From an uncultured Clostridia bacterium (lineage in GTDB: Bacteria; Bacillota; Clostridia; Christensenellales; UBA1242): 50,882 nt of DNA. The notes beneath the pieces are model-generated. The model saw nothing but the letters and a program-made list of their open reading frames with translations, was not told where the DNA came from and searched no databases. Each line of letters begins with the position of its first letter. Within the stretch, counting starts at the first letter, position 1. The stretch lies in assembly GCA_944372325.1 (NCBI GenBank), contig CALVYR010000003.1, forward strand, positions 1-50,882, given 5' to 3'. This document shows positions 7,671 through 37,578 of this stretch, piece after piece. The position numbers and the translations under genes are program-made.

Positions 7671-7689
7671 CTTAAAGTTAGAGGTAAAT

Positions 7690-8463: not shown

Positions 8464-8464
8464 T

Positions 8465-9250: not shown

Positions 9251-9294
9251 CCTGAAAATGCCTAATTTTTAATTCTTATCAATAACACGAAAGC

Positions 9295-9332
9295 CTCCTC
9301 TTTTCGTATAATAGTTAAGTAGAAAAGAGGAG
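9295..9332 (+). promoter_or_regulatory. Stem-loop that sequesters the Shine-Dalgarno of the 9339 ORF
   Basis: CTCCTCTTTTC (9295-9305) is perfectly complementary to GAAAAGAGGAG (9322-9332). The right arm is the SD of the ATG at 9339. The 16-nt loop contains TATAAT (9307-9312). Confidence 0.55.
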
Positions 9333-9338
9333 AAATTT

Positions 9339-10349: not shown

Positions 10350-10366
10350 AAAATTTTTTAAAAACA

Positions 10367-10395
10367 TTGTACTTATTTAAAATTAGTGGTAAAAT
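10367..10395 (+). promoter_or_regulatory. Extended -10 sigma-A promoter placed for a leaderless transcript
   Basis: TTGTAC, a 17-nt spacer, then TGgTAAAAT. The -10 element ends 6 nt before the ATG at 10402, and no SD lies upstream of that ATG. Confidence 0.5.
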
Positions 10396-10401
10396 ATATA
10401 T

Positions 10402-13377: not shown

Positions 13378-13920
13378 ATGGCAGATAAAAAACCAGTATA
13401 CATCAGATGCCCAAGATGTGAATTAAACTATATACAAAAGAAAGATAAGCTTTGTAGCGTTTGTAAAGCCGAGCTTAGCGCTAAAGACGATTATGTTGAT
13501 GAATTAGATCTAGAACTTTGCCCTGTTTGTAAAACTAATTACATTCAGTCTGACGAAGTTATGTGTCAGAGCTGTTTAAAAGAAAGAGCTCTTGATAATG
13601 ATATCCATGGTATTACAGATGAAAATGATGAATGGGATGCTTACATCAATCGTGATGAAGATGAAATTATTTCACCAGACGAGGAAACTGGCGATATGGC
13701 TGTTGTGAACAGCTTGGATGAGGCGGACCTTTTAGATGGCGATGACGATGATATAACTTTTGACGAAGATTTAGATGAAGATAACCCTCTAGATGATGAA
13801 GAACTAGACGAAGAAGAAGATAGTGACGTTGATGACTTTGACGACTACGATGAAGATGATGACTACGACGAAGCCGACGATGATTATGACGACTATGATG
13901 ATGACGATGATGATAAATAG
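13378..13920 (+). CDS. Tandem zinc-ribbon protein with a ~100-aa polyacidic (D/E) tail
   Basis: Two copies of CP-x-C-x2-NYIQ-x5-C-x2-C are present: 'CPRCELNYIQKKDKLCSVC' and 'CPVCKTNYIQSDEVMCQSC'. From residue ~80 the protein is almost entirely D/E and ends in 'DDYDDYDDDDDDK'. Confidence 0.75.
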   Translation: MADKKPVYIRCPRCELNYIQKKDKLCSVCKAELSAKDDYVDELDLELCPVCKTNYIQSDEVMCQSCLKERALDNDIHGITDENDEWDAYINRDEDEIISPDEETGDMAVVNSLDEADLLDGDDDDITFDEDLDEDNPLDDEELDEEEDSDVDDFDDYDEDDDYDEADDDYDDYDDDDDDK

Positions 13921-19685: not shown

Positions 19686-19739
19686 ACAAAAATAGGCTTA
19701 AAAAAAGGCCTGTTTTTTTTGTAAAAATGGTAAAAATAT

Positions 19740-19768
19740 TTGATATTAGTGTCGAAATTATGTATACT
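19740..19768 (+). promoter_or_regulatory. Sigma-A-type promoter for the giant gene
   Basis: TTGATA, a 17-nt spacer, then TATACT, about 40 nt upstream of the ATG at 19811. Confidence 0.55.
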
Positions 19769-19810
19769 AGTAAATGTAGAATTATACAATTTTCAAAAGG
19801 GGAATTTTGT

Positions 19811-22800
19811 ATGCAGAAGAGTAGCAATATAAATAAAATAATTTTAAAGGTGGGAATTGTTCTAGCACTAATTGCCTCCATATTTGGCATGGGGCTAATT
19901 TCCTCATCATCTAGGGCGTACGCCTCAGAGGAAACTACAACAAGCATAGAAGAGGTTGTAGACACTTCTGAACATGGTAGCACAGAGGAGATAACTGGCG
20001 CTACGGATCCAACTAACCCAATTATAGATGCAGACCTCACTTTTATTGAGGCAGAACCTTTTGCTGGTAATGGATCCGCTGGAAACCCCTATCAATTAAA
20101 AAGCGCAGGGAACCTTGCATATCTTGCTAACCAAGTAAATGGAGGAAATGATTATGAGGGTGTTTATTTTACGCTAACTGCAAATATAGATCTTGCTGGA
20201 AAAATCTGGACTCCAATTGGATATAATACCTCAAATACATTTAGAGGTTTTTTTGATGGTGATGGCTACACAATTTCTAATTTATATACAGACTATAGAA
20301 CAATAACTGGTGCTGATGCCTATGGTCTTTTCGGCTTTCTTGGAAATCGTGCGACAATAAAAAATGTTCAAGTAACTAGTGCTAACATTGTTTCAAATGA
20401 AGAATCGGGAATAATAGCTGGTTATGTGAATGCTAATGGTGTTATAATTGAAGCTTGCTATGCTACAGGTACGATAAATTCTACTACATATATGGGTGGT
20501 ATAGTTGGTCGTGGAAATTCAAAATCATCACCAGCAATATCAAGATGTTATACCAATGTAACATTTTTAGGTAATGGAACTAAATATGCTATTATTGGAT
20601 ATTATGGAGATGTAGATTATTGTTTAGCTGATGCATCTATAAATCTTACAAATTCAAACGCTTCTGTAACAAACTCTATTAGAAGATCTGGAAACTATCT
20701 TTATACTAATAATTCAACTTCTAGAACTCAATATTACAATTTAACAAGTGTTAATTATAATTTTAAAAATGATGGTAGAACATCAAATCCTATTTGGTAC
20801 AGTTCTTCCAACAGTAACAGTACCCTTTGCTTAAGAGGTGTAGGAAATGTTTATGTAGAAACGGAATCTTACATAGCTACTCAAGATTATGACGATTCAG
20901 GCACTAATTCTACTACTGGTTCATCAAATAGACCTTATAATAATAGTTATAATGCAAATGGTGCTTATAAGACCTATGCTAAAGGTTTAATAAGAACTAG
21001 TTCAAGTGCTTCAAGTACAGAATATACAAAATTTTATACTTTAGGACAGACAATAACTTCTGCTTATTTAGTTCCAGCGTCTTCCGCCACTTGGGTATCA
21101 TATGAAATTTCAAACTATAATAAAATAGCAACTCAAGTCACTAAAGAAGTTAATAAAACACAAACATCTACTTATAATAAAACATTAAACGCTACCACAA
21201 TTACTAATTCAAGTAGTTTTGCTAGTTCAAGCCGTCAGGGTTATTTTGTAATTGATGCCGTTTTTGATAATATACTCTATCAATTCACACTTAATGCCTA
21301 TGATGCAAGCCCAAATGAAAAATTAGGAACTGCAGATTGTATTGGTGCATATAAACAGAATTTAAATTATACTCCTACTTATTATAATCGTTTAGGTATA
21401 ACTGTTATAAATGAACAAATTAATATTAAAAATAATGATAATACTACATTATTAGGTTCAGACAACCTTTATAGAAGAGGAGCAGAAGAAGTTTTAAATG
21501 GTACAAGCGGGTATAAATATTATAGAACTGTTGCATATTTAAGATATGGTGATACACTTCCATATATTGATATAAACATTTCTAATTCAAATATTTATCT
21601 AGCGGAGTTTACCGATAATTCAAGTAACTATACTTTATCTTATGATAATAATGATAAAGATCTCAGTATTAATCCAAGTACTTCTGTAAATGGCAATGTT
21701 AGGGTTGATATGTATTTTACAAATGCAACCAAAGTGACCTTTGCAAAAGGTAATGAACTATCAAGTAGCAGTGTAACAGTAAACACAAATTCAGGTTATT
21801 CTTATTGGGTTATTAATGGATCTACTAGTAAAGTTTATGTTTTAAAGAAAACCAAACTTGCAGGAACAAGTAATTGTACTTATAATCAAACAGATCTTCC
21901 AACTGTAAATTATGATAGTCTAGGTGATAGATATGAACTCCTTGGGTGGGCGGATGATAGGACTATAGGTTTGTTTACTGATCCTGATGCTAATGGTTCT
22001 TATACTGCATTAGATGGTACTGTAGAGAGGGTTTTTGCTAGTCATTCAAAGTCTAGATTAAATGCGGAATTTGTTCCAGTCAAAACTTTTGTGGCTCCAG
22101 GTCGAACAGGAACTTCAGCTGGAACAAACCATATGGTATTAGATTTATATACGGTTTTCCAAGCTAATAATGGAAAACTTAAAGTAAGATTCTTTGATGG
22201 AACTTCTCAGATAACCAGCAATAGTAAATTAACTAGCATGGGGCTCACTTTCTTTGTCAGCATAAATAATGGAGCTAACTTTACATCTCCTACAAAAACT
22301 AATGGAACAATTACATTAACAATTCCTTATGGCACAGCTCTTCAATATAGGTTGAATTATAAATGCGGTTCTTCAGATAAATATTCATCAACTTATAGTT
22401 ATGTGTTCGGTTCAAGTAATGGATCGTACACAGCAAGTTCAACTGCTACAAGAACTTTAACAGAATTAAATAATGAAAAATATTTAGATTTCATATTCAG
22501 TACTCAGCCTAGGACACTAGATGTGGAAATTATTGGCGAGGATGGCGAAGATATAGCTGAAAGTATATTATCATCCTTTGGCTTTATGGTTCGCAACCAG
22601 ACAACAAACACTACTTTACAAACCCCAAACTACACTACTGGTTCATATGGTGGAATAAACTATTTATATTCTAAAGGTGTAAATTATGCTGACATTTTAC
22701 AAATAATAGTTCAAACTGTTCCAGAGGGGTACCACATTGAGTCTGTAACATTGGCAAATGGCTCTGATATTACATCAAATGGCACTACCTATACAACAGG

Positions 22801-25800
22801 ACAGCTCAGATCTAATACAAAAATTCTTATAACGCTTGCAAGAAATAAGGCAACTATAAATATTCAGCAAACAGGGTTCTATTCCAACTATTTATCAACA
22901 AGTTTGCCAAATTATAGTTATGTTGTAACAAGAGCAGAAGGTGGCACAAATAGCTCTACTTTAAAAACACCAACAACAATCACTATTAAAACAGGTGATG
23001 ATTTTAGTTTATCTTCTAAATTCGATTCAAGCACAGCTTACTTCTTATCAAGAGTTACAGCTGAATCAATTCTAAGCTCTCTTAATGCTACAATCACACA
23101 AGGAAATGGTTACACTAATAGTGTATCTGACCTAGTTGTAGGTTCTGATGGGGCTACTATTACTTTAACTTTAAATTACTCAATTAAAGAATTTACATTA
23201 AATTTTGATGCAACAACAGATTCAAATACAAATAGTAGTTATTGGGCATTTAGTTATACAATTAACAGAAGTGCAAGAAATTCATCAGAATCCGCTACAC
23301 TAACGGGCGAAGTTTCACCTGAGGGATCTGTAACTTTGCGCCATGGTGATACCATTAAAGTAAGTGTAAATGTTAAAAATAGCGCAGCGGTTACATCCTA
23401 TGGCGTAAGTGCAAATGCTACACAATCTTCAACTAGTGGTTTTACTTCTAGTGTAGATGTTAGCTATTCAAGTTTAATAAGCGCTGCTAAAACTGTATTT
23501 GCAAGGGTTCTTTTAAATGAATATGATGTTATATTCAATTTAAGCCCTGTGGGTTCTACTTTACCAGATGGAAGTGCTCTATTAAATCCAGCAACCTGGG
23601 CAGATGGCGCTTCTGGAAACACTAAAACCTATACGGTTTACTATAATTCAACCTTATCCACAATTCCTGATGCTAGAAGAAATGGTTACAACTTCTTAGG
23701 CTGGGCTACAACGGAAAACGCAACTTCTGCTAATTTTAATTCTAATACAAGAATATTACAGGAAACAAACCTTTACCCTGTTTGGGGAAAATATAGCTAC
23801 GATATAGATTACGACTTAAATGACGATGAGGTCGTTGGCGTAGTTTGGGCAACTTCTTCTACAACAAGTATAGGCTCTGGAGATAGCTATACATTCCCAA
23901 CTCTCACTAGTGATAGCCATGACTTTGTTGGTTGGAGATATACCTACAATGGTCAAGAAGTAGTTGCTGCTCCAGGCACTGTCATTACTTGGGACTTTGC
24001 TCAAAACATGACCTTTACTGCTGTATGGCAAAGAAAAGTATTTGATGTTCAAGTTGTTATATATGGTCAATATTCTCCAGACGGAACAACATTTACATAT
24101 TCAAAAATAGCAGACGGAACTTCAACTGATGTATATTATGGAGAACTTTCTGCAGATGCTGTTAATTTAGTTTTAAACAAGCCAAGTGCTCAAGGTTATA
24201 GCTTTGTTGGTTATTTACTTAACGAGCCAAGTGCTTCTACTATAGGTGATATCAGCACAACACTACCAAATATTATTGTATCCGATAATAACACAACAGA
24301 TAGAGTTTTAACTGTTTATGTTGTATACAAAAACTTCTATACTCTAACATATGCCTCTGCAGGGAATGGAGATATTGAAATAGATAACTATTCAAGCCCA
24401 TTCTATGCTACATATGGCGAGGACTATGAGTTTATATTAACTCCAGATGATGGTTACCTGTTTGGATATTTCAATGTAACACCATCTGCTTATATAAGTT
24501 ATATTAGTTCATCAAATGTTTTAACAATGCCAGCTAGCGATTTAACAGTTGAGGCTGTGTTTATTGTTGCTGAAATTGATATTACATATTTAGCAGACCA
24601 TGATGGTTCTACTGGTGCAAAATTTGCAGATGGCACTCTTGAGAAAACTGGTGTTGTTACATATTTAAACACAAATTATAGATATGGCTCTAACACAGGT
24701 ATGCCTGTACCTTCTAGAACTGGTTATGATTTTGCTGGTTGGACGGATGACATAAATTGGGAAAATATTCCTGTTTCTCAAAGAAAAATATATACAGAAA
24801 CTACGCCTTGGGATAAGACGGAAGCAACAATTCTTTACGCAACATGGGAGCCAGAAAGCTATGATTTAATATTTGTTTTAAATGCTTCAGGTGTTACAAA
24901 CCCTACAAGCCTTGATGAAATTACTGTTATTTCAAATGGCGAAACAATTACAAGAACTCCTACATCTGGAACAGGCTTTGTAATAAAATATGGTGAAACA
25001 TTAATTTTACCAGACCTTGATAGTGATAGTCACGATTTAGTTGGTTGGTATATTGGAACTAACACTCAAAAAATATACACTCCAGGCGAGCAGTATGTTT
25101 GGAATGAACTTAACGGAAATACTTTAACTGCTGTTTGGGAAGCTAAAAAGTTTGAAGTTAGAGTTGAAATATATGGCGAACATTTAAATTCTGATAGATT
25201 GTCTTATAGCTATGTAGATATAGGCAATGGCAACACATACTCTAATTTAAGTTTTGGAACATTCCTATCAACTACTTTTGGTGTAGATGCCCTAGGTGCT
25301 CCAAGTTTAGCTATCAATAAACCAACAGAGGCTGGATATACTTTTGTTGGCTATGCGCTTTCAGTTCCTACAACTGGTAATATTGTTTCAACATTCCCAG
25401 AAATTGAACTTTTAGATAGCAACTCCTATGTTAATAACAGAGTTTTAACACTATATCTTGTTTATAAAAACCATTACACACTATCTTATGCTCCTAATTC
25501 TTCAGCATTAGGAAGCGTGCATGTAAATTTATCTGGTACAAACATCTATGGCAGTTCTGTTGAAGTAACGGTCGGTGAGGGCGTTACAATTGTTCCAACA
25601 GCAAACAACGGCTATCATTTTGTTGATTATCAAGCAACACCAAGTGTTGAGTTCTTAGACAATGCAATTTATATGCCAGCTAACAATTTAAGCATTGTTG
25701 CAGTTTTCGAGCCAGATATTATTGATATAAACTATTATAGAAACGATGGTACAGAAGCTATTGAAACTACTGGTAAAGTAACATTTAATGCAAGAGATTA

Positions 25801-28800
25801 CACCTATGGCGTTACAGATATTTCTGGTATGCCAACACCTGTAAGAGATGGTTACGATTTTGTAGGTTGGTTTGATGCTAAAGAAAATGGCAATAGATAC
25901 GATACTAACACAGTTTGGAATATTTATAATAGCCCTGCAGCGTTATACGCTCACTGGTCTGTAAAACAATATAATATAACTGTAAATATTTACGGCGAAA
26001 AAGTTGATTCTGCCGATAAAACTAACTTATCTAACTATGAACTTGCAGATGTTGCATCAATCAGCATTTCAGATGGTGATAACACTGCTTATAGTGAAGG
26101 TTATACTTACACAGTAAGCTACGATTTTGGTAAAACTATCACTATTTCAGGCGTAGCTAACGCAGGTTTTGAGTTCTATACTGCAATAACCAACAGTACA
26201 TCTCAAACACTTCCATACGAGTTTGTTTTAACTTCAAGCGGTGCGGTAGTAAATCTTTACTATTCAAGGCAAGATTTCACATTGACCCTTGATAAAAATA
26301 CAACTGAAAATGTTACAGGTTTAACCTCAACTCAATATGTTCTAAACTATGGTCAAAGCTTAGCTCTTCCAACTCTTAATAGAACTGGCTATCAATTCTT
26401 GGGCTTTGATTTAGACTCAAGCGCTGAGCAGGCAGAATTTACTTCTTCTTATGTTCAAGGAACAGAGGCTCAGACCTTATATGCTATTTGGAAACCTATA
26501 GACTATGATATAACAATTAAATTCATGTTTGAAAATCTTGATGGTGAATTTGAAGCGTTAGGCTTACTTGGGAATTTTGATTTAGCTTATAACACTACTA
26601 ATATGCAAACTCTTCCAGAATTTAATGGCAAGATAGCTTATAGAACAAGCGTTACTATTAGTAATATAGTATTAGAAGCTGGCTTTGAAATAAGTTCTGT
26701 TAGCTTTAATAGTGTTACTCTAACAGGTGTAAGCGGAGCTTATAGCTTTGATGTTCCACTAAATGGTGGAGATGTAGTTATCTATGCTTCAAGAATTCCA
26801 TATGATTTAACTTTAGACTTAAATATCAACGATTCAACAGATGTTGATATGAACAATTGGCACTTTGAAGATGATATTTCTGAAACTACAATACTTTTTG
26901 GGCATACAATATCACTTCCGGATTTCACAGACTATAGAGATGGTTACGATTTCTTAGGCTGGAGCGATGGCGAAACCACATATGGCGTTGGAGATAGTTA
27001 TACTCAAGGCTTAACTACTAACACCTTAACTGCTGTTTGGGACGCTAAAACCTATTATATTACATATGATAACAATACAACTAACCCATATAATGACAAC
27101 AAAGATGTTGTAAACGATGCTTGGGCAGGCGAGGCTGGTGTAACAAGCATTAAATCTGGTGAAAGTTATACATTCCCAGCTCTTACAAGTGATAGTCACG
27201 ACTTCTTAGGCTGGAGTATTACTCTTGATGATGGCACTACTTATAATTATAATGTTGGTGACACCAATCCAATAGTTTGGGGATATGCAAGCGATGTTAC
27301 CTTAAAAGCTAAATGGAGCACAAAGATATTTGAAGTTAAAGTTGAAGTATGGCATGCAAATATCAGCGCTTCTAATAGAGATAACATTAGCTATACAAAG
27401 CAAGCAAACTTAACTGCTTATGATCAAAATGTTTACTATGGCGATTTAGTTAGAGGAATTTCAGATGTTATTTATTCACAAACTGGCTATAGTTTTGTAG
27501 GCTACTTTACACAAAATGTTAGCTGGACAGATTCAGATAAATTTGCTATAGACACACCTATAACTGGTGATACAACAATTTATCTACTCTACAAAAACTT
27601 CTATGAATTGAATTTCTCTTCTTCAGACCCAAATCGTGGATCATTACAGGCAAGAATTGGAATTGAAAATTTAGTTTCTGGCGACTATGTTACATATGGT
27701 GAAAGTGTTACACTAACTCCAGTGCCACTTATCTTAGAAGGACACACAGAGAGTGGATATGAATTTAGCAGTTACACAATAACTCCTAACGCTAGAATTA
27801 CAGATCACACATTTACAATGCCTGTTGGCGATACTAACGGAAGCGTAAGCGTTATAGTAAACTTCAGAGCTAAAACTATAAATATTACCTATAATGCTAA
27901 TACTGGTAAATTCTCAAACGGTAACACCACTTCAAGTGGAACTGTTATTTATCTGGACACAAACTATACCTTTAAAGAAGTGCCAACTAAAGTAGGTCAC
28001 GACTTCATAGAATGGAACACAGAGGCCGATGGCTCGGGAATTTCTTATCCTGTTGGAGCTAACTCTTCAGTGATAGAAATTCAATGGAATGAACCATACA
28101 CCAACGATATCCTCTATGCTATTTGGGAACCAACTCCTTATACAATAACAGTTCAAATAAAAACTGAGTCCTTAACTGAAGATGGGGAGTACGAAGTTTC
28201 TCAGGATGCTACATTCAATATCAGATACAATGGTGAACTCACCACAGGTTTAAGAGCCTTTGAAGAAGATATTGCTTATAACACTGAGGTAAGAATTGAA
28301 AATGTCAGTGTAGATACAGGCTTTAGCTTCTCAAGAGCAACTTTAAATGATAGAGAATTAGTAGCAATAGATGGCGTTTATTACTTATTCAATGTTCCAA
28401 ATGGTGATAGCACATTTGTTATCTATGTAAACAGATTACCTTACGATTTAACCTTAAATGCTAATACAAGTGATACAATTACAAATGTTACTGGCTGGAA
28501 CTTTACTCTTCAAGATGGCGTTTACAAGGCTACAAATACATATAAATATAAATCTAACATTGTTTTACCTACACCTGTAAGAGAAGGTTATCAATTTACT
28601 GGTTGGCTAAAAGCAGGTGGCACTACATATCAAGGTGGTGAAACCTTTGAACTTACAGGAGATGTAACCCTTCAAGCTACATGGCAGATTAAAACTTTCC
28701 CTGTTACAGTTGTTTTACAAGCATTCGAAGGAACCTATCTAGATTTAAGTGCTGTAGGCTTTACTCTTTCAGAGGGAAGTGTGCAAGTTTTAGCTAGTGA

Positions 28801-31800
28801 TGGCATAGAAACTTCATTTACTACTGGTAGAGAGTTTAATTACGGTACAGAACTAACACTTGATGTTGAACACGGTTCCTATGAAATTGCTTCAATAACA
28901 GGAATTGATAGCTTGCAAGCAGTTAGCTCTCAAACCTTTAATGTAGCAGATTCTAAAAACATTATTGTTATTACCTTTGTTGCTGTAACCGACTTTAGCA
29001 TTGTATTAAATGCTACTGGTGCAGATTCATGGAATCTTGGCTCTGGAAGTGAAACTATTTGGACTATTAGTGAAGATAAGAGTATTGCAACAAGACTTAT
29101 TTCCACAGGTGAAGAAATTAATATAATTACACCTAATAGAATAGGTTATAAGTTCCTTGGTTGGTCTACAACTCCTAATGGTTCGGTAGATTACGCAAGC
29201 ACAACTTATGAACCAACAGATTCTTCAAATAAAATGTTCCAATTATATGCAGTATGGCAGGTTATTCCTTACGATGTAACAATTTACTATCAACATGAAA
29301 ATATTAATGAAGGATTCGAATTAAGTGGTTTAGATTTTGAAGTTTTAATCAACGGCGTAGCAGATACAACTAATGGTGATACAATAACAGGAACTTATGA
29401 TTTTGGCACTGAATTTGTATTTACTTTAGATGGTTTAAAACTACCAGATGGCTTTAAATTTAAGGATATAACAATTAAGAATTTAGAAGATAATTCTGAA
29501 ACTACAGTATTAGAACTTCCTTACTCATTTAAAGTTCCAAATTACAATACTCAAATTATTATAAGAATAGAAAGAAGAGTATTTAATGTTAATTTAAACC
29601 CTAATGCAAATGGAGATAGCGTAACTGGCTTAGAAGAACAGTTTACAGCTAAATATGGCATAGCTAAAACTCTTCCAACACCAACAAGAAGTGGTTATAG
29701 ATTTGATGGTTGGACATTAGATCAAGTTAGCACAACTTATGTTACAACTCATACTCAAGGCTTAAATGAAGTAACCTATTATGCACAATGGACAAGAACG
29801 GAATTTAAGTTAAATATTAAGCTATTTATTAATGAAGTTCAATACACAGGCTCAGATTGGACTATAGGCTATGAAGATATCTATACTCCAACCTTTGAAA
29901 ATGGCGTATATACATTTGGTATCCTTTACAACACATATGTTCAGTTCACTGTTATAAGAAATGCATTTAGGCTAGAAAAAGTTGTGGTTGGCACTCAAGA
30001 ATTTACATCTTATAATGTAGATTTCAATATGCCAGCTAGTGATACAGATTTCAATATCTATCTTGTAAATGAGAACTATACATTCACTTTAGATGCATCA
30101 AATTACATAGATGGAAATGCTGAAGTTGAATTTTCAAATGCTACTGGTTGGACTATAAATAATGGGGTGGCAAGTAAAGCTGTAATATCTTATGAAGAAG
30201 TAGATTTACTAACTCCAGTTTCTACTGGCTATGATTTCTTAGGCTGGTATACAGAGCCATATGGTCAAGGCGAACTTGTTGAGGATGTTACATTTACTCA
30301 AGATGTTTGGGAAAATGTTGCATATTATGCTCGTTGGGATTATGGTAGCACAACTCTATCATACTCTACATGGCTAGAAAATGCTCACAATAGTGAATTT
30401 ACTCAAATTTCAGAAGGTACAACAGAATATAACAATGTATTTAAGTCTTTAACTTTCTCTCATGAAGGAAGCGTAGGCTTCAAAACAAATGTAACAGTAA
30501 CCTTTGAGTTAAATGATGGTTACAGAGCGCTTGAAGGTGATATTACAGGTGGAAATTCAGGAACGCTTATAGATAATGGCAATAACACCTACACATATAC
30601 ATTCAATATGCCTTCTGCATCTACAGAGATAAAACTCAACATTAGAAGACAAGTTTATACTTTGACATTTGATAATGGTCTAGGTAATGAAGTTGACATA
30701 GTATCTAATATGCCTGATCCTGTTCAGTTAAAGCTAGATGAAAATTGTACACTTCCTGTAACACCTGAAAGGTCTGGCTATACATTTGCTGGTTGGTACA
30801 CAGAATTAAAAGGTCAAGGCACTGGTTATGATAATACAAATAATCTATATTACCAAGGTAAGGGTGATGAAACACTTTACGCATACTGGACTATAAATGA
30901 TAGTGGACTAACTGTTAAAAAATATTTAGATGGTGAGCCTACAACTAGTGGTGGTACATTTACAGTTGGCGGACAAACTGTTGAGCCAAACGAAGCGTAT
31001 GAATATATTTTCAATGTTACATACGGTGATTATTTAGCTCTCAGCATAGATCCAACAATATACAACCTAGAAAGCGTTGTGGCAGACAATGCTACATTAA
31101 GCGGTTCTGGAAACACTAGATATTTCTCTGTAGGAGAAGATCCTGTTACAATTTATATCTACTTTACAAGCAAAGATTACACTTTAACCTTAGTTGCAAA
31201 TAACTATTTAGATTCAAATGCTACTGTAACCTTTAATGCTAGCTCTGGTTGGGTGGCAGTAAACAGCAGTGCTACATATCAAATCAAATCAGCTGGAAGC
31301 GTAACTCTTATCACTCCAAGTTCAACTGGATATAAGTTCTTAGGCTGGTATTCAAGCCCTAATGGTCAAGGAGATATGCTCTATTCTGACGGCGCTGAGT
31401 TTACACAAAACACTACAGAAAATGTTACACTATATGCTAAGTGGGAAATAGGAAATTATAGCTTAACAACAAATATTAACACTCAAAATATTATTGATGA
31501 TGAGTTTGCTAATAATTCAGATGGACTTTCAAGTTTGAGACTAGAAAAATTCGCAGATGGAATTTGGGTAGATGCAACTAGTGAAACTTCTTTCGATTAT
31601 AACACTTCACTTAGGTATATAATTGAAACTAAAGCAGGTTTTAACCTTCAGGCAAATAGCTTTGATGGAATTTCAGGAGCATTTAGCTCTAATGGAACAG
31701 CTTATATCTATGAATTCACAATGGCTGGCAGTGAAACAACTATTGATGTAAATATCTATAGAAATGAATATGTTCTAAGCTTTGCAAATGGAAATAGAGA

Positions 31801-34800
31801 TGTAACTGATATAACATCTACAATGCCAGAGCAAATAACTCTTAAATTTGGTGAGAGCGTAAATCTTCCAGAGGCATTAACAGCTACAGGTTACACATTT
31901 GAAGAGTGGAATACGGTAGCTAACGGAAGTGGCACAGCTTATCAACCTTTAGCAAACTTCACTCAAACTTCTGAAAGCGTTACACTTTATGCTGTATGGA
32001 CTATCAATTCTCATAAGATTACAATAAACATCACAGGTAATGCTCCAGTTTCTGAAGTGAGTTTCGTGCTTACAAACAGCGAAGGAGATGAGCTCTTAAA
32101 GAGTGATGGTGTAAATTCAAGTTTTGAAGTTTCGGATATAGATTATAATTCTAACTTAACTATAACAATAGATTCTGGAATTTATAATATTGGTTCTGTA
32201 ACTGGTACTAACGGTGAGGGTAATGTTAGAACATTTACTATGCCAGATGAAGATGTGGTTATAAACATAATCTTTGGTGAAGCATCTTACGAACTCACAT
32301 TAAACCCAGATACTACAATTATTAGTAACTATACAGTTACTTGGGTAGAAGATGAAATACAAAACTGGCAAGAAACAGAAACAAATAGTATTAAAACAAC
32401 TGTTGTTTCAAATCAAACTTTGCAAACTCTTCCAACCCCAAGTATCAAAGGTTTAGAGTTCTTAGGTTGGTATACAGAAGCAAATGGAAAGGGTACATTA
32501 GTTACTGCTTACACTCAAAAAACTGCACAAAATGTCACACTTTATGCTCACTATAAATTAGCTTCATTTAACTTCGATTTAAATATTAGCACTGAAGATG
32601 CTATTTTAGATGAATATGATGAAAATCTAGATGGAGTTAATGGTGAAGTATCACTTTACCTATATGATGAAACTACTAAAACATGGTTAAAATCTGACGC
32701 ATTTACCTATGGAAATGCGGTAAAAATAGAGTATTTAAAGAATGCAAGATTTGAATTTACATTAAATAGTGGTTTTGAAATTGCTGATAATGCAATATCT
32801 GGAAATATTCAAGGCGTTCTATCTAATAATGGTAATACTTATTATTATACTTTCATAATGACAAATGAAGCGGTATCTGTAAATATCAATATATCAAGAA
32901 TAAGATATACTCTAGAATTTGATAAGAATACTCAAGATACTGTAACCAATCTTCCAGAAAGAGTGTCATTAAAAATGGGCGCAACCTATGAAATTCCAGA
33001 TGCTTCCACAATGGTAAGAAAAGGTTATGCGTTTACTGGAATATGGAATATCTATGGCACAGATGGTGAAATTATTACTTCTCTTGAGGCTGGTGACATA
33101 TTCACTCAGACTAGCGCAGGAAATACCATATTATTTGCAAATTGGAATGCTAAAACTTATACTATAGAATTTGATTTTGCTGGCGGTACTTCTAGTGAAA
33201 CAGGAAGAGAAATTGGATATGATACTTCAATCATAATGCCTGACACAGAATATGAAGGTTATGAACTCTCAGGTTGGACAATTAAAGTTAAGGGTTCTAA
33301 CACAACTTACGCAATTACTACTGGTGATACATTAAGAACTCTTGAAACTAAAAATTCAGTAGATTTAGTTGGAACTCTAGATACAGTAACCTTTGTAATT
33401 ACAGCAAATTGGAATGCAGGAAATAACTTTATTACAATAAGCTCTGGGCTTGATGAAACACTTTACACACAAAATGGTTTGACAATAGCTTCCAGACCTA
33501 CTGCTCCACAGATAGACTTCTATGTAAATAACGAGCTTCGTCAAAATTATAGCGTAAGCACGGGAGATACTGTAAGGCTTCAAGCTACCTTGCCAGAAGG
33601 TTACCAAGTTAAAGAATGGCAAATAACTGGAACGGCAAGTCAAACTAACCCAGATGGCAACTTAAATATTGTAGAAATTACAGGCTTTACATCTAATTTA
33701 AGTGTAAAACTTGTTTATGAACCTAAAGAATTTACAGTTACACTTTTAGCTTCTACAAATGGCAATCTTTCATTTGCTCAAGAAAACAGTGGAGTTTATG
33801 ATATAACTGAAAACACTGCTAAAACACTTTCTGGTGTAAATGTAAATGTTTTGGCAACGCCAAACGATGGCTTTACATTCTCAAGTGTTAGCTCAGATAA
33901 TTCAGCAGTTACACTTTCTCCAACAAAGCAAGGTGATAATGCTGAAATATTAGTTGTGGGAATGCTAGAGGATACTCAAATTTCTGCAAGCTTTACAGAA
34001 AGACCAAACTTAGTAATGATTGAAGGCGACAATATAGCTTCTGTAAGATATCAAATTTCAGACTCTACACAGTTTGGAGATAACTTCATTCTATATAGCG
34101 ATAATTCTGGAATAACAATTTTAACAGGACAATATTTAAAGCTTCAAATTACTACAAATCAAGGTTATAGCGTAGTTAATTTGCTTTGCAATGATAATAA
34201 TGTTGTTATAAATTATCCTTATGAGCAAAATAACAATCAAGCATTAATTCAAGGTATAATTGCTGATACTACAATAACTATTGATACTGAAATAAATGAA
34301 TATAGTTTTGAGGCTGGAATTGTAAATAATGGCCAAGAAGGAACTATAAACATTGAAACACAACCAAATATTAGCGGAAAATATAACTATAACACTGAAA
34401 TAACTTTAAGTGCTACAAGCGAACAGGTAGGCGGACTTGATAAATATAACTTTATAGGTTGGTTTACAGATCTTGAAGGATTAAACTTCTATTCAGCTGA
34501 AAATCCACTTACATTCACATTGACTGAAGATACAACTCTTTATGCTAAATTTGAAATTAAGACCTATAATGTTACATATCAAATCGGCTCAAGTTATGAT
34601 GGTTATGGTACACTTTCAGGAAATGTAAACCAAGTTGTAAACTTTGGTGAGAGTTCAGAAGGTGTTACTGTAGAAGTTGGATTAGGCTATGAGTTTACTA
34701 GATGGGTTATCACTCGTGGTGAAGATGTAAGCTATAGCGAAGACCTAACTCTTGTAATAGACAATGTTACCTCGGATGTACAGTGCGTAGCTGAGTTTAA

Positions 34801-37531
34801 TAAAAAGGATGTAACTATAAATCTTCAAGTTTCCATTGAGGGTGAAATAATTACAACTGGAGTTGACAAAGTAGCTATTCAATATGTATCTGGTGCAGAA
34901 GGAACTGATATCTCTACAGCAGAGTTACTTGAAATGACATTGTCTGGAAAATCTAATACAGATATTGTTATTAGAGCAATTCCAAAACAAGGTTATACCT
35001 TTGGTACATATCAACCTTATAGTGTTACAGGGAATATTGATGTAACTGTAGATGGCAATATGATAACCTTAAATGCTAAGGATGAAGTAACAAATGTGGT
35101 TATCAACTTTGCTAGGCGTTCTAATATAATTACTTCAAGCTTGTTGATTTCTGGAAATGTTGGTGGTGGACTTATCAGATATGAAAGTCAAGGCATATGG
35201 CAACACACAGGTGCAACATATGAAGCGACAAGAAATACTGAAACTACACTTACCTATAAGATATTTATCTCTCCAGGATATCAACTTGAAAGTGCATTTA
35301 AAAACGCTTATGTAGATGGCCAACCATATGTTGGCACAGGTTATACACTTGTTATAACTACAGCTACAGATTATACAGGTCTAGATGAACAATACTTCAC
35401 AGAGGCCTATGATGTTACAATTTCTGGATATAAAGCAGATGTAAATGTAAATATCCCAGTAGAGCGTTTAAGAACACTTGTAACTTTCCATAACGGAAAT
35501 CTTTCAGATACTAGTGAAACCTTTACAGGAGAAATACTATATGGTACCTCACAAATAGTAGGTCCAACAGCAGAACAATTAGCTCCTACAAGTGAAACCC
35601 ACACTTTTGTTGGCTGGGCAAATAGTTCTAACGCTATTCTTGTTGATGCAAACGGACAGCTTTCTTCAACATGGCTATTAACTGAAACAACATATGATCT
35701 ATATGCTCAATGGCAAGAAAAATTAATTCAAATAGAAGTTGAAGTATCACCAAGCATTGCTCTTCAAAGTCAAACAAACTTCTATACAACCTTGTTTGCT
35801 AACTCAGCATCTTACGGGTTAAAGCCAGAAGCATACGATTATAACGGTACAACACTTTACTTTACAAGACCACTATCAAGATTGTACTTAACATTGCCAG
35901 TTTATAAATCTGGATACATATTTGAAGGTTTCTATATTATGAACCCAGAAACTGGTGAATATGAAAAGGTTGCTGAGCAAACTCCTGGAACATCTGAAGA
36001 TTACGCAACTAGCACAAACTGCATGATCAACATCCAAAGCTTTAATTACTATTCGTATGCAGATGCTTCAAATAATGGTACAATTTACATTAAACTTGAA
36101 TTTAATGTAACAACCAAGATAAATGCTAGAAACTACTATGGCGACAATAACAGACTATCTTCTATTGGAGGAACTGTAAGCTTTGTTGACACTGCGGGTG
36201 TAGCAGATGATACAGCAATTACAAGTGCAGATGCTACAATTAAGATGGTTGCAACTCCTGAGAACGGCTACTCCTTCATGCATTGGGAAGATGAAACTGG
36301 TTTAATCGTTTCAAATACTCCAGAATTTGAAACTACAGCTTCTCAGACAAAGAATTACACAGCGGTGTTTGTTGGAAATAGAATTCAAATCGTTTCTGAC
36401 TACGAAAATGTTGATGTAGAAGGCGGAAACCCTGAGGTATACAACGATGTTGAATACTATCATGTTGGAGATATTGTAAGCTTTAGATATGATGGCTTTG
36501 TTGTTGGATATGATCATGTTGGCTGGGCTGTTTTAAGAGAAGTTGAAGGCGAATTTGAAAATATAACAACACTTACAGGAACTACTCCGTCATACACATT
36601 AACAGAACTTTATGAAACATTAAAGATCAACCCAACATTCAATTTAAGTACGGTTGAAGTTACGGTTATAATGAGCGGAGATGGCGAAGGTGATGGCACT
36701 ATAAGATTTGCTGGAGATTTAGTTGAGTATGATAAGGTAGGAAATACCTACACATTTGAAATTCCATATGAAACTAACTTAAGCTTTACAATAGTTCCAA
36801 ACATCAGATATACATTTGATAGTGCAACCGTAAGGTATGGCGAAAGTGAGCCTGTTTCAGTTCAGGTTGTAGCAAATGAATTTAGCATCAATTACGCTGA
36901 TTATAACAATGCTAGAGCTATTACAGTGAATATCAACTATAGAGAAATCTATTGGCGTGAATATGTACTAGAAAGTGGACAAATCTTAGATAACGGCGAT
37001 GGCACATATTCTGTTAATCCTAATGGTGGCGACTTCTTAGGTGAAGGTACAGAAGAATATCCTTATGAATTAAATAACATTTTAGACTTAGCAAAACTAG
37101 CATTCATAATTAATAACAATATTAGGCAAACTGATAGACAAAAAGCAGAATATAACACTGCAGTTTACGAGTTAAACATTGATATCAACTTTGCGGATAG
37201 ATACTGGACACCAATAGGAACAAGAGATAATCCATTCCGAGGGACCTTCTACTTGAGAGGAGAAAGAACAAACCTCTTCGTAGATGATAACGACGAGTTG
37301 TTCCCTGCAAATACTTGCTTTGATACTGAAGCTGAATACTATTCATTATATGGAAAACTATTCGGTTACTTAGATGGAGCAAATATCATTGTAGAAGAAC
37401 CATCGCTTCTAGTGCTTTGGATAGTTCTTGGCGTAGTGCTATTAATAATTTTAATAATTGTAATAGTAATTATAATTTCTCATGAAAGAAGAAAGAGAAT
37501 TACTGAAGAAAGACAAAAATTATTAAAATAA
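19811..37531 (+). CDS. Giant (5,906 aa) tail-anchored surface protein with GLUG-type modules at both ends and at least ~25 Listeria/Bacteroides (Flg_new/InlB B-repeat-like) repeats
   Basis: The reading frame is uninterrupted for 17.7 kb. I prefer the ATG at 19811 (SD AAGGGG 8 nt upstream), which yields the signal peptide 'MQKSSNINKIILKVGIVLALIASIFGMGLISSSSRAYA|SEE'. Repeats of the form '...P.R.GY.F.GW......Y......LYA.W' recur throughout. The C-terminal TM is 'LLVLWIVLGVVLLIILIIVIVIII', followed by the basic tail 'SHERRKRITEERQKLLK'. Confidence 0.9.
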   Translation: MQKSSNINKIILKVGIVLALIASIFGMGLISSSSRAYASEETTTSIEEVVDTSEHGSTEEITGATDPTNPIIDADLTFIEAEPFAGNGSAGNPYQLKSAGNLAYLANQVNGGNDYEGVYFTLTANIDLAGKIWTPIGYNTSNTFRGFFDGDGYTISNLYTDYRTITGADAYGLFGFLGNRATIKNVQVTSANIVSNEESGIIAGYVNANGVIIEACYATGTINSTTYMGGIVGRGNSKSSPAISRCYTNVTFLGNGTKYAIIGYYGDVDYCLADASINLTNSNASVTNSIRRSGNYLYTNNSTSRTQYYNLTSVNYNFKNDGRTSNPIWYSSSNSNSTLCLRGVGNVYVETESYIATQDYDDSGTNSTTGSSNRPYNNSYNANGAYKTYAKGLIRTSSSASSTEYTKFYTLGQTITSAYLVPASSATWVSYEISNYNKIATQVTKEVNKTQTSTYNKTLNATTITNSSSFASSSRQGYFVIDAVFDNILYQFTLNAYDASPNEKLGTADCIGAYKQNLNYTPTYYNRLGITVINEQINIKNNDNTTLLGSDNLYRRGAEEVLNGTSGYKYYRTVAYLRYGDTLPYIDINISNSNIYLAEFTDNSSNYTLSYDNNDKDLSINPSTSVNGNVRVDMYFTNATKVTFAKGNELSSSSVTVNTNSGYSYWVINGSTSKVYVLKKTKLAGTSNCTYNQTDLPTVNYDSLGDRYELLGWADDRTIGLFTDPDANGSYTALDGTVERVFASHSKSRLNAEFVPVKTFVAPGRTGTSAGTNHMVLDLYTVFQANNGKLKVRFFDGTSQITSNSKLTSMGLTFFVSINNGANFTSPTKTNGTITLTIPYGTALQYRLNYKCGSSDKYSSTYSYVFGSSNGSYTASSTATRTLTELNNEKYLDFIFSTQPRTLDVEIIGEDGEDIAESILSSFGFMVRNQTTNTTLQTPNYTTGSYGGINYLYSKGVNYADILQIIVQTVPEGYHIESVTLANGSDITSNGTTYTTGQLRSNTKILITLARNKATINIQQTGFYSNYLSTSLPNYSYVVTRAEGGTNSSTLKTPTTITIKTGDDFSLSSKFDSSTAYFLSRVTAESILSSLNATITQGNGYTNSVSDLVVGSDGATITLTLNYSIKEFTLNFDATTDSNTNSSYWAFSYTINRSARNSSESATLTGEVSPEGSVTLRHGDTIKVSVNVKNSAAVTSYGVSANATQSSTSGFTSSVDVSYSSLISAAKTVFARVLLNEYDVIFNLSPVGSTLPDGSALLNPATWADGASGNTKTYTVYYNSTLSTIPDARRNGYNFLGWATTENATSANFNSNTRILQETNLYPVWGKYSYDIDYDLNDDEVVGVVWATSSTTSIGSGDSYTFPTLTSDSHDFVGWRYTYNGQEVVAAPGTVITWDFAQNMTFTAVWQRKVFDVQVVIYGQYSPDGTTFTYSKIADGTSTDVYYGELSADAVNLVLNKPSAQGYSFVGYLLNEPSASTIGDISTTLPNIIVSDNNTTDRVLTVYVVYKNFYTLTYASAGNGDIEIDNYSSPFYATYGEDYEFILTPDDGYLFGYFNVTPSAYISYISSSNVLTMPASDLTVEAVFIVAEIDITYLADHDGSTGAKFADGTLEKTGVVTYLNTNYRYGSNTGMPVPSRTGYDFAGWTDDINWENIPVSQRKIYTETTPWDKTEATILYATWEPESYDLIFVLNASGVTNPTSLDEITVISNGETITRTPTSGTGFVIKYGETLILPDLDSDSHDLVGWYIGTNTQKIYTPGEQYVWNELNGNTLTAVWEAKKFEVRVEIYGEHLNSDRLSYSYVDIGNGNTYSNLSFGTFLSTTFGVDALGAPSLAINKPTEAGYTFVGYALSVPTTGNIVSTFPEIELLDSNSYVNNRVLTLYLVYKNHYTLSYAPNSSALGSVHVNLSGTNIYGSSVEVTVGEGVTIVPTANNGYHFVDYQATPSVEFLDNAIYMPANNLSIVAVFEPDIIDINYYRNDGTEAIETTGKVTFNARDYTYGVTDISGMPTPVRDGYDFVGWFDAKENGNRYDTNTVWNIYNSPAALYAHWSVKQYNITVNIYGEKVDSADKTNLSNYELADVASISISDGDNTAYSEGYTYTVSYDFGKTITISGVANAGFEFYTAITNSTSQTLPYEFVLTSSGAVVNLYYSRQDFTLTLDKNTTENVTGLTSTQYVLNYGQSLALPTLNRTGYQFLGFDLDSSAEQAEFTSSYVQGTEAQTLYAIWKPIDYDITIKFMFENLDGEFEALGLLGNFDLAYNTTNMQTLPEFNGKIAYRTSVTISNIVLEAGFEISSVSFNSVTLTGVSGAYSFDVPLNGGDVVIYASRIPYDLTLDLNINDSTDVDMNNWHFEDDISETTILFGHTISLPDFTDYRDGYDFLGWSDGETTYGVGDSYTQGLTTNTLTAVWDAKTYYITYDNNTTNPYNDNKDVVNDAWAGEAGVTSIKSGESYTFPALTSDSHDFLGWSITLDDGTTYNYNVGDTNPIVWGYASDVTLKAKWSTKIFEVKVEVWHANISASNRDNISYTKQANLTAYDQNVYYGDLVRGISDVIYSQTGYSFVGYFTQNVSWTDSDKFAIDTPITGDTTIYLLYKNFYELNFSSSDPNRGSLQARIGIENLVSGDYVTYGESVTLTPVPLILEGHTESGYEFSSYTITPNARITDHTFTMPVGDTNGSVSVIVNFRAKTINITYNANTGKFSNGNTTSSGTVIYLDTNYTFKEVPTKVGHDFIEWNTEADGSGISYPVGANSSVIEIQWNEPYTNDILYAIWEPTPYTITVQIKTESLTEDGEYEVSQDATFNIRYNGELTTGLRAFEEDIAYNTEVRIENVSVDTGFSFSRATLNDRELVAIDGVYYLFNVPNGDSTFVIYVNRLPYDLTLNANTSDTITNVTGWNFTLQDGVYKATNTYKYKSNIVLPTPVREGYQFTGWLKAGGTTYQGGETFELTGDVTLQATWQIKTFPVTVVLQAFEGTYLDLSAVGFTLSEGSVQVLASDGIETSFTTGREFNYGTELTLDVEHGSYEIASITGIDSLQAVSSQTFNVADSKNIIVITFVAVTDFSIVLNATGADSWNLGSGSETIWTISEDKSIATRLISTGEEINIITPNRIGYKFLGWSTTPNGSVDYASTTYEPTDSSNKMFQLYAVWQVIPYDVTIYYQHENINEGFELSGLDFEVLINGVADTTNGDTITGTYDFGTEFVFTLDGLKLPDGFKFKDITIKNLEDNSETTVLELPYSFKVPNYNTQIIIRIERRVFNVNLNPNANGDSVTGLEEQFTAKYGIAKTLPTPTRSGYRFDGWTLDQVSTTYVTTHTQGLNEVTYYAQWTRTEFKLNIKLFINEVQYTGSDWTIGYEDIYTPTFENGVYTFGILYNTYVQFTVIRNAFRLEKVVVGTQEFTSYNVDFNMPASDTDFNIYLVNENYTFTLDASNYIDGNAEVEFSNATGWTINNGVASKAVISYEEVDLLTPVSTGYDFLGWYTEPYGQGELVEDVTFTQDVWENVAYYARWDYGSTTLSYSTWLENAHNSEFTQISEGTTEYNNVFKSLTFSHEGSVGFKTNVTVTFELNDGYRALEGDITGGNSGTLIDNGNNTYTYTFNMPSASTEIKLNIRRQVYTLTFDNGLGNEVDIVSNMPDPVQLKLDENCTLPVTPERSGYTFAGWYTELKGQGTGYDNTNNLYYQGKGDETLYAYWTINDSGLTVKKYLDGEPTTSGGTFTVGGQTVEPNEAYEYIFNVTYGDYLALSIDPTIYNLESVVADNATLSGSGNTRYFSVGEDPVTIYIYFTSKDYTLTLVANNYLDSNATVTFNASSGWVAVNSSATYQIKSAGSVTLITPSSTGYKFLGWYSSPNGQGDMLYSDGAEFTQNTTENVTLYAKWEIGNYSLTTNINTQNIIDDEFANNSDGLSSLRLEKFADGIWVDATSETSFDYNTSLRYIIETKAGFNLQANSFDGISGAFSSNGTAYIYEFTMAGSETTIDVNIYRNEYVLSFANGNRDVTDITSTMPEQITLKFGESVNLPEALTATGYTFEEWNTVANGSGTAYQPLANFTQTSESVTLYAVWTINSHKITINITGNAPVSEVSFVLTNSEGDELLKSDGVNSSFEVSDIDYNSNLTITIDSGIYNIGSVTGTNGEGNVRTFTMPDEDVVINIIFGEASYELTLNPDTTIISNYTVTWVEDEIQNWQETETNSIKTTVVSNQTLQTLPTPSIKGLEFLGWYTEANGKGTLVTAYTQKTAQNVTLYAHYKLASFNFDLNISTEDAILDEYDENLDGVNGEVSLYLYDETTKTWLKSDAFTYGNAVKIEYLKNARFEFTLNSGFEIADNAISGNIQGVLSNNGNTYYYTFIMTNEAVSVNINISRIRYTLEFDKNTQDTVTNLPERVSLKMGATYEIPDASTMVRKGYAFTGIWNIYGTDGEIITSLEAGDIFTQTSAGNTILFANWNAKTYTIEFDFAGGTSSETGREIGYDTSIIMPDTEYEGYELSGWTIKVKGSNTTYAITTGDTLRTLETKNSVDLVGTLDTVTFVITANWNAGNNFITISSGLDETLYTQNGLTIASRPTAPQIDFYVNNELRQNYSVSTGDTVRLQATLPEGYQVKEWQITGTASQTNPDGNLNIVEITGFTSNLSVKLVYEPKEFTVTLLASTNGNLSFAQENSGVYDITENTAKTLSGVNVNVLATPNDGFTFSSVSSDNSAVTLSPTKQGDNAEILVVGMLEDTQISASFTERPNLVMIEGDNIASVRYQISDSTQFGDNFILYSDNSGITILTGQYLKLQITTNQGYSVVNLLCNDNNVVINYPYEQNNNQALIQGIIADTTITIDTEINEYSFEAGIVNNGQEGTINIETQPNISGKYNYNTEITLSATSEQVGGLDKYNFIGWFTDLEGLNFYSAENPLTFTLTEDTTLYAKFEIKTYNVTYQIGSSYDGYGTLSGNVNQVVNFGESSEGVTVEVGLGYEFTRWVITRGEDVSYSEDLTLVIDNVTSDVQCVAEFNKKDVTINLQVSIEGEIITTGVDKVAIQYVSGAEGTDISTAELLEMTLSGKSNTDIVIRAIPKQGYTFGTYQPYSVTGNIDVTVDGNMITLNAKDEVTNVVINFARRSNIITSSLLISGNVGGGLIRYESQGIWQHTGATYEATRNTETTLTYKIFISPGYQLESAFKNAYVDGQPYVGTGYTLVITTATDYTGLDEQYFTEAYDVTISGYKADVNVNIPVERLRTLVTFHNGNLSDTSETFTGEILYGTSQIVGPTAEQLAPTSETHTFVGWANSSNAILVDANGQLSSTWLLTETTYDLYAQWQEKLIQIEVEVSPSIALQSQTNFYTTLFANSASYGLKPEAYDYNGTTLYFTRPLSRLYLTLPVYKSGYIFEGFYIMNPETGEYEKVAEQTPGTSEDYATSTNCMINIQSFNYYSYADASNNGTIYIKLEFNVTTKINARNYYGDNNRLSSIGGTVSFVDTAGVADDTAITSADATIKMVATPENGYSFMHWEDETGLIVSNTPEFETTASQTKNYTAVFVGNRIQIVSDYENVDVEGGNPEVYNDVEYYHVGDIVSFRYDGFVVGYDHVGWAVLREVEGEFENITTLTGTTPSYTLTELYETLKINPTFNLSTVEVTVIMSGDGEGDGTIRFAGDLVEYDKVGNTYTFEIPYETNLSFTIVPNIRYTFDSATVRYGESEPVSVQVVANEFSINYADYNNARAITVNINYREIYWREYVLESGQILDNGDGTYSVNPNGGDFLGEGTEEYPYELNNILDLAKLAFIINNNIRQTDRQKAEYNTAVYELNIDINFADRYWTPIGTRDNPFRGTFYLRGERTNLFVDDNDELFPANTCFDTEAEYYSLYGKLFGYLDGANIIVEEPSLLVLWIVLGVVLLIILIIVIVIIISHERRKRITEERQKLLK

Positions 37532-37541
37532 AAAATTAAAA

Positions 37542-37571
37542 AAGCTTCTAAATTAATTTAGAAGCTTTTTT
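37542..37571 (+). terminator. Rho-independent terminator of the giant + strand gene
   Basis: Palindrome AAGCTTCTAAATT/AATTTAGAAGCTT followed by T6, 10 nt after the stop codon. Confidence 0.85.
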
Positions 37572-37578
37572 ATGTTTG

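Follow-up and report, generated by a model that had tools for sequence, protein, structure and literature searches.

The stretch of DNA analyzed here (hereafter, the window) consists of 50,882 nucleotides (nt) of contig CALVYR010000003.1 in assembly GCA_944372325.1, from an uncultured Clostridia bacterium. It contains a gene for a giant protein of 5,906 amino acids (aa) with related head modules at both ends, the second of which is truncated and sits on a C-terminal transmembrane (TM) helix. This layout was shared by many giant proteins of gut bacteria. The features of the giant gene are listed below; structures were modelled with AlphaFold2 (AF2), and HMM stands for hidden Markov model.

19796..19813, + strand: Shine-Dalgarno-like AAAGGGG and ATG start, read from the sequence, with 8-nt spacing to ATG 19811
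19811..19924, + strand: putative Sec-type signal peptide, aa 1-38; basic n-region, hydrophobic core, AYA then SEE; by inspection of the translation
20048..20650, + strand: N-terminal head, aa ~80-280; cap helix, then predicted right-handed beta-helix (AF2, Foldseek, family profile)
20651..23578, + strand: distal variable region, aa ~281-1256; Ser/Thr/Asn-rich, no recognisable domain
23579..36667, + strand: stalk, aa 1257-5619; Flg_new / InlB-B-repeat units and ~105-aa spacer domains (Pfam, TIGR02543, self-built HMMs)
37034..37405, + strand: C-terminal truncated head, aa 5742-5865 (BLASTP to the N-terminal head, family HMM, AF2)
37406..37477, + strand: TM helix LLVLWIVLGVVLLIILIIVIVIII, aa 5866-5889; Kyte-Doolittle mean 4.0; helix in AF2
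37478..37531, + strand: short, putatively cytoplasmic tail SHERRKRITEERQKLLK and stop codon; 17 aa with 7 K/R and 3 D/E, net positive
37537-37572, + strand: terminator-like hairpin, then T-run, directly after the stop codon

The frame 19727..37531 on the + strand was open over 5,934 codons, and it yields the 5,906-aa product when translation starts at ATG 19811. This start was chosen because AAAGGGG stands at the 8-nt spacing and a typical signal peptide begins there. The in-frame ATG 19727 had no such ribosome site and would put 28 residues ahead of the signal peptide. No in-frame TGA codon was found in the gene, and its tryptophan codons were TGG (79 occurrences). An earlier reading of this DNA (the original prediction) had proposed a single 5,906-aa open reading frame (ORF) with a signal peptide and a C-terminal TM helix, and this was confirmed, as the ORF was uninterrupted and the TM helix mapped to 37406-37477. 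Six terminator-like sites were found, compared with 0.0 expected in shuffles. As a terminator-like hairpin follows the stop codon, the giant gene seems to be monocistronic.

The two terminal modules were also proposed to be related, and the homology proved to be significant. BLASTP aligned the N-terminal head (N-head) with the C-terminal one at 34% identity over 86 aa (E=8e-9). The family HMM, run over all ORFs of the window, matched exactly two places, the N-head (independent E-value, i-E, 1e-30) and the C-head (i-E 3e-30). What the two ends had in common was limited to the cap and one or two initial rungs; the beta-helix body was found at the N-terminus only.

The signal peptide MQKSSNINKIILKVGIVLALIASIFGMGLISSSSRAYA, assigned by inspection, is followed by SEE, and the N-head module begins at aa 84 (nt 20060). 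It contains GLFG at aa 172 and one GGIVG at aa 229. In the AF2 model, the predicted local distance difference test score (pLDDT) exceeded 90 across aa ~80-280. When this model was compared with known structures by Foldseek, the top match was BACOVA_03286 (3n6z, E 8.9e-6), and IgA1 proteases were matched with a probability of 1.0. The family profile of the N-head found 3n6z at E 9e-44 and 6xja at E 8e-25. A sequence search of the Protein Data Bank (PDB) with the N-terminal 367 aa gave no match, and 3n6z was reached by the family profile only. The M26 IgA1-protease N-terminal domains (PDB 6XJA, 7JGJ, 7UVK) and BACOVA_03286 (3N6Z) have the same right-handed beta-helix fold as the N-head model, and the cap motif G.G...PY.I ... 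W.PIG ... F.G.FDG.G..I ... GLFG is common to them and the N-head. By homology and by the fold shared with the predicted structure, the N-head is a beta-helix of the IgA1-protease N-terminal-domain / BACOVA_03286 type.

The giant protein differs from the M26 IgA1 proteases in other respects. No Pfam peptidase domain, including Peptidase_M26, was found in it, and the HEXXH motif (HE..H) occurred nowhere. The Pfam GLUG family (PF07581), which the original prediction had assigned to both modules, was not matched in either half of the protein at E<=0.01. The GLUG label is indirectly justified for the N-head, through the 3n6z match and the homologs of the N-terminal 500 aa, most of which (61 in total) contained PF07581. 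It could not be kept for the C-terminal copy, which had no GG[ILV].G rungs; the sole such motif of the protein is the one at aa 229.

The C-terminal copy (hereafter, the C-stub) is a cap helix with about two rungs, ~124 aa in extent, and has no GLUG rungs. It shows G.GT..YPY, the cap helix, WTPIGT..NPF.G.F and then (K)LFG..G..I in this order. Its sequence elements are WTPIGTRDNPFRGTF and GKLFGYLDGANIIVEE, and the TM helix follows directly. The C-stub ends ~20 aa past GLFG. A disordered acidic insertion of ~15 aa within it was specific to the clade of the window protein. The AF2 model of the C-terminal region consisted of a strand, a helix (residues 24-35) and then strands, with a mean pLDDT of 79 and values below 50 at model residues 90-110. 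A continuous helix over model residues 133-172 (pLDDT 84-98) spans the TM helix. Thus, the proposal that the C-terminal module sits right on the membrane anchor was correct: the C-stub occupies aa 5742-5865 and the TM helix aa 5866-5889. The net positive charge of the tail fits the positive-inside rule. A hydrophobic segment and a basic tail, as in a sorting signal, are present, and neither LP.TG nor LP.[TSA][GAN], our patterns for LPXTG, matched anywhere in the giant protein. Among the NCBIfam sorting-domain models (PEP-CTERM, GlyGly-CTERM etc.), none reached its cutoff, and the best was GG_III-CTERM (NF041738, E 0.064, 13.2 versus 22 bits).

We searched 1.84e9 cluster representatives (50% identity) by phmmer with the C-terminal 203 aa and obtained 932 matches at E<=1e-3. 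The best 150 of these matches were used for counting layouts. A protein was counted when it had a head within the first ~130 aa, a truncated head ending <90 aa from the C-terminus and a length >4,000 aa; a TM helix and a net-positive tail complete the definition of the family. Among the best 150 representatives, 70 had this layout, with lengths of 4,300-8,000 aa. The window protein groups with 69 other representatives, its heads lying at aa 84 and aa 5742 and the second one ending 42 aa from the C-terminus. An equivalent, strongly hydrophobic terminal helix was present in 68 of the 70 members. The tails were net positive in all 70, with a median of 14 aa, and often ended in EELA(N/K)x. The distance from PIG to the TM helix had a median of 56 aa (10th-90th percentile, 55-61). 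In 19 of the 70 representatives (e.g. P0111, P0156, P0200, P0135), but not in the window protein, a third head was found at aa ~450-640; these middle heads formed a tight class of their own, with 51.5% mean identity among themselves. Other proteins of >=3,000 aa among the best 150 had 4-15 heads at internal positions. The smaller carriers of the C-terminal cassette (C-stub, TM helix and basic tail) almost all looked like C-terminal fragments of giants, because they had no signal peptide; P0187 (2,073 aa) was the exception. A word-indexed homolog search with the same 203 aa found nothing, and its profile version gave mostly short fragments.

A scan of GTDB species genomes revealed 126 relatives, mostly in uncultured Clostridia, Christensenella, Catabacter, Eubacteriales and 'Lachnospiraceae' metagenome-assembled genomes (MAGs) from animal and human guts. 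The scan was built on a 10-sequence subset, and its pattern IGT[EK]ENPF leaves out the window's own clade (IGTRDNPF). At 33 loci, an ORF filled the whole 10-kb upstream flank; most of these ORFs ended in a TM helix and a basic tail (RKKKK…EELAN), and a few had longer tails. At the species level, the family was represented in dozens of MAGs, from the guts of humans, mice, rabbits, goats and chickens. Judging from these sequences, the layout of N-head, C-stub and TM helix is a conserved signature of a large family. According to the original prediction, the head normally occurs once, at the N-terminus, and a membrane-proximal copy is unusual. The first statement was contradicted by the 70 of 150 best representatives with heads at both ends, 19 of them with a third copy. 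As the same layout is common to 70 giants, the C-terminal copy is not unusual within the family either.

In an alignment of all N-terminal, middle and C-terminal modules, the nearest neighbor of every C-module was a C-module (70/70) and that of every N-module was an N-module (70/70), in each case from another protein. The identity between N- and C-modules was 29.6% within proteins and 29.3% between proteins. From the clustering of C with C and the equal identities within and between proteins, it follows that the duplication predates the family radiation. The pattern points to one ancient internal duplication that was vertically inherited, with no concerted evolution. An ancestral gene fusion had been suggested for the window protein; an old duplication does underlie the pair of heads, but the fusion is not needed to explain these identities and the clustering.

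The C-terminal cassette was the best-conserved part of the protein, and its geometry was fixed. Mean identity was 40% among C-modules and 36% among N-modules. The nearest neighbors of the window C-head were the C-heads of the representatives P0062 (88%), which is the closest ortholog of the window protein, and P0064 (60%), and the identities of the window protein to these two were as follows.

Whole protein: P0062, 57.6%; P0064, 33.7%
N-head: P0062, 53.8%; P0064, 52.1%
C-head: P0062, 89.5%; P0064, 60.5%

An alignment of 38 C-head sequences (A1) had seven invariant positions, G11, G13, P18, P68, G70, F76 and G78, and all of them belong to the residues of the head motif that determine its fold. 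Conservation along the giant protein was lowest in the distal variable region (aa ~281-1256), in which no Pfam or NCBIfam matches were found. Compared with P0062, it had 28-57% identity per 100-aa window (28-44% across aa 501-1300), and compared with P0064, aa 501-1300 had 16-29%. AF2 confidence was low at aa 290-420.

The stalk was built of the same units as the Listeria-Bacteroides / InlB B-repeat proteins (PF09479, PF18998, TIGR02543), and it differs from those proteins by a second type of domain, ~105 aa long, with which the repeats alternate. Pfam identified 15 Flg_new (PF09479) stretches and six Flg_new_2 (PF18998) stretches. PF09479 scored 100 and 240 bits (cutoff 27), PF18998 scored 50 and 102 bits (cutoff 23.6), and TIGR02543 of NCBIfam scored 39.8 and 105.5 bits (cutoff 20.95). 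Of the two Pfam families named in the original prediction, PF09479 was found in these 15 stretches, and PF07581 was found at neither end. An HMM built from the protein's own repeats gave 27 units at i-E<1e-3 and ~42 when weak ones were counted, in agreement with the predicted number of at least ~25. The strict motif GY.F.GW occurred only 10 times, and a loose version 22 times. The spacer domain had ~15 copies. The proposed alternation of repeats and spacers was true of aa 2886-4454, where nine repeat units strictly alternated with eight mutually homologous spacers of 101-109 aa, with a period of ~183 aa. It was not true of aa 1257-2781, which had a different arrangement of tandem pairs and larger super-repeats. 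The spacer domain showed only a marginal relation to Flg_new (hhalign E 4.6e-4, probability 33%).

At the DNA level, the stalk repeats appear to be old. The longest direct repeats in the giant gene were <=75 nt and <=81% identical, and Tandem Repeats Finder detected no tandem array. As the repeats are short and diverged and no array exists, a collapsed-repeat artefact, which had been named as a possible objection to the ORF, is unlikely. The protein could also be aligned collinearly over its full length with P0062 (6,070 aa; 55% identity across 6,141 columns) and P0064 (5,683 aa; 33% identity). Both come from other assemblies, and their clusters also include proteins of comparable length that stem from separate ENA and Logan assemblies. 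In view of the repeat analysis, Tandem Repeats Finder and the collinear orthologs, a collapsed repeat was rejected. Two other assemblies of the same organism had contig breaks within the giant gene, as is common for genes of this kind.

Upstream of the giant gene lie genes for a SipL/LysM protein, SpoIIR, a SleB-like hydrolase and YpeB, which belong to sporulation and germination. Immediately upstream is a 358-aa protein (18609-19685, +) with only a borderline Rho_N match (E 3e-5, 24.3 versus 24.9 bits), and a short hairpin with a T-run separates this Rho_N-domain gene from the giant gene. A 180-aa protein at 13378-13920 (+) had an N-terminal double zinc ribbon and a C-terminal tail composed almost entirely of Asp and Glu. 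Further upstream, at 3243-9250 of the window, is a housekeeping block (holB, PSP1, methyltransferase, rsmI, spmA/B, tatD, ksgA). The same holB-to-ksgA block was found 4-10 kb downstream of family members elsewhere (L001, L003, L008, L029, ~14-20 kb). The neighborhood is conserved but rearranged between genomes, and because the housekeeping block adjoins family members in other genomes, the giant gene is taken as chromosomal. At 2953-11263 of locus L044 (MAG BRZ_DN__bin59), the SipL-like, SpoIIR, SleB and YpeB genes (32-63% identity) again form a cluster, and a 1,252-aa stop-to-stop ORF with a head match follows them in place of the giant. This arrangement is a hint of turnover among head-bearing surface genes at this site in the chromosome.

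On the downstream side of the giant gene, another very large gene at 37818-45725 (-) specifies a 2,635-aa product that has a signal peptide as well as a C-terminal TM helix and basic tail of its own. This protein had no head module, no Pfam domain and no homolog in 80 related loci. At 45917-48556, a VirD4/TraG-type coupling protein (PF02534, PF12696, PF10412) lies beside a small membrane protein similar to type IV secretion system pilins (PF18895); among the related loci, these genes were shared only with locus L050 (67% and 51% identity). This downstream region probably represents an integrated conjugative element. From ~48760 to 50882 (+), a long membrane-protein ORF with a low-complexity tail rich in Gly, Ala and Pro runs off the end of the window; the local GC content was 0.58-0.61, compared with ~0.33 elsewhere. 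The tail also accounts for the ORFs listed at 49947-50708 (-) and 50162-50515 (+), which are its frame shadows.

Across the 33 loci, we did not find a conserved accessory or partner gene near the giants; only housekeeping synteny (UppP, P-type ATPase, holB, PSP1) was observed. At 11 of these loci (L001-L010 and others), a gene similar to undecaprenyl-diphosphatase (UppP) began 0-200 nt past the stop codon of the giant and was followed by a P-type ATPase gene. The UppP-like assignment was made by eye from the motif EFLPVSSSGHL. Neither gene was near the window copy.

Taken together, it is probable that the giant protein forms a membrane-anchored, adhesin-like fibre of ~0.2 µm with a conserved membrane-proximal base that was derived from the head. 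The product would be a giant protein with type I membrane topology, made by an uncultured, spore-forming Clostridia bacterium of the gut. The Sec signal peptide would export ~5,800 residues, the single C-terminal TM helix would act as a stop-transfer anchor and the short basic tail would remain in the cytoplasm. The exported part might then be a fibre of ~55-60 small beta domains, with an estimated length of ~0.2 µm, which would allow it to span the wall. Its distal tip would carry a beta-helix head with no peptidase domain. The fastest-evolving region lies beside the head, as is expected of an adhesin or another ligand-binding fibre. The second head is a truncated copy of fixed size that arose from the ancient internal duplication and now represents a separate positional class. 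As a base domain near the membrane, joined to the TM helix at a distance of only a few residues, the C-stub may serve as a structural foot linking the stalk to the anchor or to its biogenesis, rather than as a ligand-binding head.

Several observations weigh against this explanation. The adhesin role is suggested by analogy, through likeness to other proteins that combine a fibre with a head, and no ligand, partner or conserved accessory gene was found at the loci surveyed. PF07581 matched neither the N-terminal 400 aa nor the C-terminal 243 aa, even at E<=10. Foldseek comparison of the C-stub model with the PDB gave only noise (E>2), with the long TM helix dominating, and the C-stub profile reached 3n6z only at E=0.069. 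It is structurally unusual for a truncated beta-helix to have no C-terminal cap; a partner might be required, and the idea of a passive foot does not account for this. In addition, all the sequences, those of the family as well as the window, are metagenomic.

A more active role of the C-stub has also been considered. Monoderm gut Clostridia might possess, in the C-stub, TM helix and basic tail, a dedicated module for anchoring that has so far escaped notice. Instead of being a passive spacer, the uncapped C-stub would template or bundle fibres at the membrane, dock the N-heads of adjacent molecules into a surface lattice or serve as the recognition domain of a release or sorting enzyme. We regard this as rather unlikely. 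Likewise, it is doubtful, and slightly more so, that the cassette is a sorting or processing signal, comparable to LPXTG, PEP-CTERM and GlyGly-CTERM, through which a protease or transpeptidase releases the fibre or attaches it to the wall. The tripartite order of conserved element, TM helix and basic cluster at the extreme C-terminus, its very tight spacing and the rank of the cassette as the most conserved part of the protein are what such a signal would show. However, instead of a short motif, a folded ~120-aa domain is conserved, the tail (median 14 aa, often with an EELAN end) is longer than that of typical sorting signals, and neither a sorting model at cutoff nor LPXTG was found. No gene for a candidate enzyme was conserved beside the giants, the UppP gene at 11 of 33 loci belonging to a housekeeping block, and the cassette was almost confined to one family of giants.

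Docking or oligomerisation, in which the uncapped lower rung pairs with another C-stub, so that fibres are bundled at the base, or with the N-head of a neighboring molecule, seemed about as doubtful as a sorting signal. The C-stub retains the fold-determining residues of the head and stops after about two rungs with no C-terminal cap, and the truncation point was invariant across the family, which would suit a complementation interface. Nevertheless, the N- and C-modules did not co-vary, the identity within proteins being the same as that between proteins. Moreover, the open end would face the membrane rather than a partner, because the TM helix is only a few residues on.

The last two explanations are disfavoured. 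It is very unlikely that the C-terminal copy has no function and persists as a relic, the decayed final unit of an ancestral protein with multiple heads. There are relatives with 4-16 full heads per protein, and the C-stub has lost the beta-helix body, but no other part of the protein is more conserved, identity among C-modules exceeds that among N-modules, seven columns are invariant in 38 sequences, and the length is fixed in 70 representatives that are <50% identical overall. Least credible of all is that the giant ORF or its bracketed ends are an assembly artefact, resulting from a chimeric join or a collapsed repeat: the window is a short-read metagenome scaffold and the gene is broken in two other assemblies, but there are no long or near-identical DNA repeats, collinear orthologs and cluster members come from other assemblies, and 70 representatives share the architecture.

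In comparison with known systems, the combination of head, stalk and anchor is familiar, and the pairing of the N-head with a C-stub and the C-terminal cassette appear to be the new part. The giant staphylococcal proteins Ebh and Embp form megadalton fibres that are held by a C-terminal TM helix and a positive cytoplasmic tail, not by sortase. Their repeats (FIVAR/GA, DUF1542) are unrelated to those of the window protein, in which no FIVAR/GA or DUF1542 Pfam domains were found, and they have no duplicated head. The serine-rich repeat adhesins and Giant1-5 of Apilactobacillus kunkeei have the same overall design as the window protein: a signal peptide and an N-terminal beta-solenoid head precede a repetitive stalk of great length (~0.2 µm), and a conserved region at the C-terminus serves for attachment (PMC12863079). 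Unlike the window protein, they have no TM helix and rely on LPXTG or SH3b-like wall-binding domains for attachment; the stalk is either Ser-rich or alpha-helical, and the C-terminal domain is not a copy of the head (PMC12863079). Giant gut Clostridia proteins with the Listeria-Bacteroides repeat have been mentioned in passing (West-Roberts et al., bioRxiv 10.1101/2023.11.21.568195), and in the passages of that preprint that were searched, neither paired N- and C-terminal heads nor a C-terminal TM cassette is mentioned. In the literature that we searched, no description of the N-head/C-stub pairing or of the cassette was found, and the GLUG motif or domain itself was rarely mentioned. There is thus little prior description of such proteins.

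Giant surface fibres are encoded by some of the largest and least understood genes of gut Firmicutes, and these genes are usually fragmented in metagenome assemblies. The proteins described here constitute a widespread, defined family with an easily recognised signature. Their most constrained part is not the tip, but a C-terminal cassette of ~165 aa that was derived from the head. This cassette could be used as a marker for finding and scaffolding such genes, is a candidate for a new Pfam or NCBIfam model, and offers a small construct to express, model and delete.

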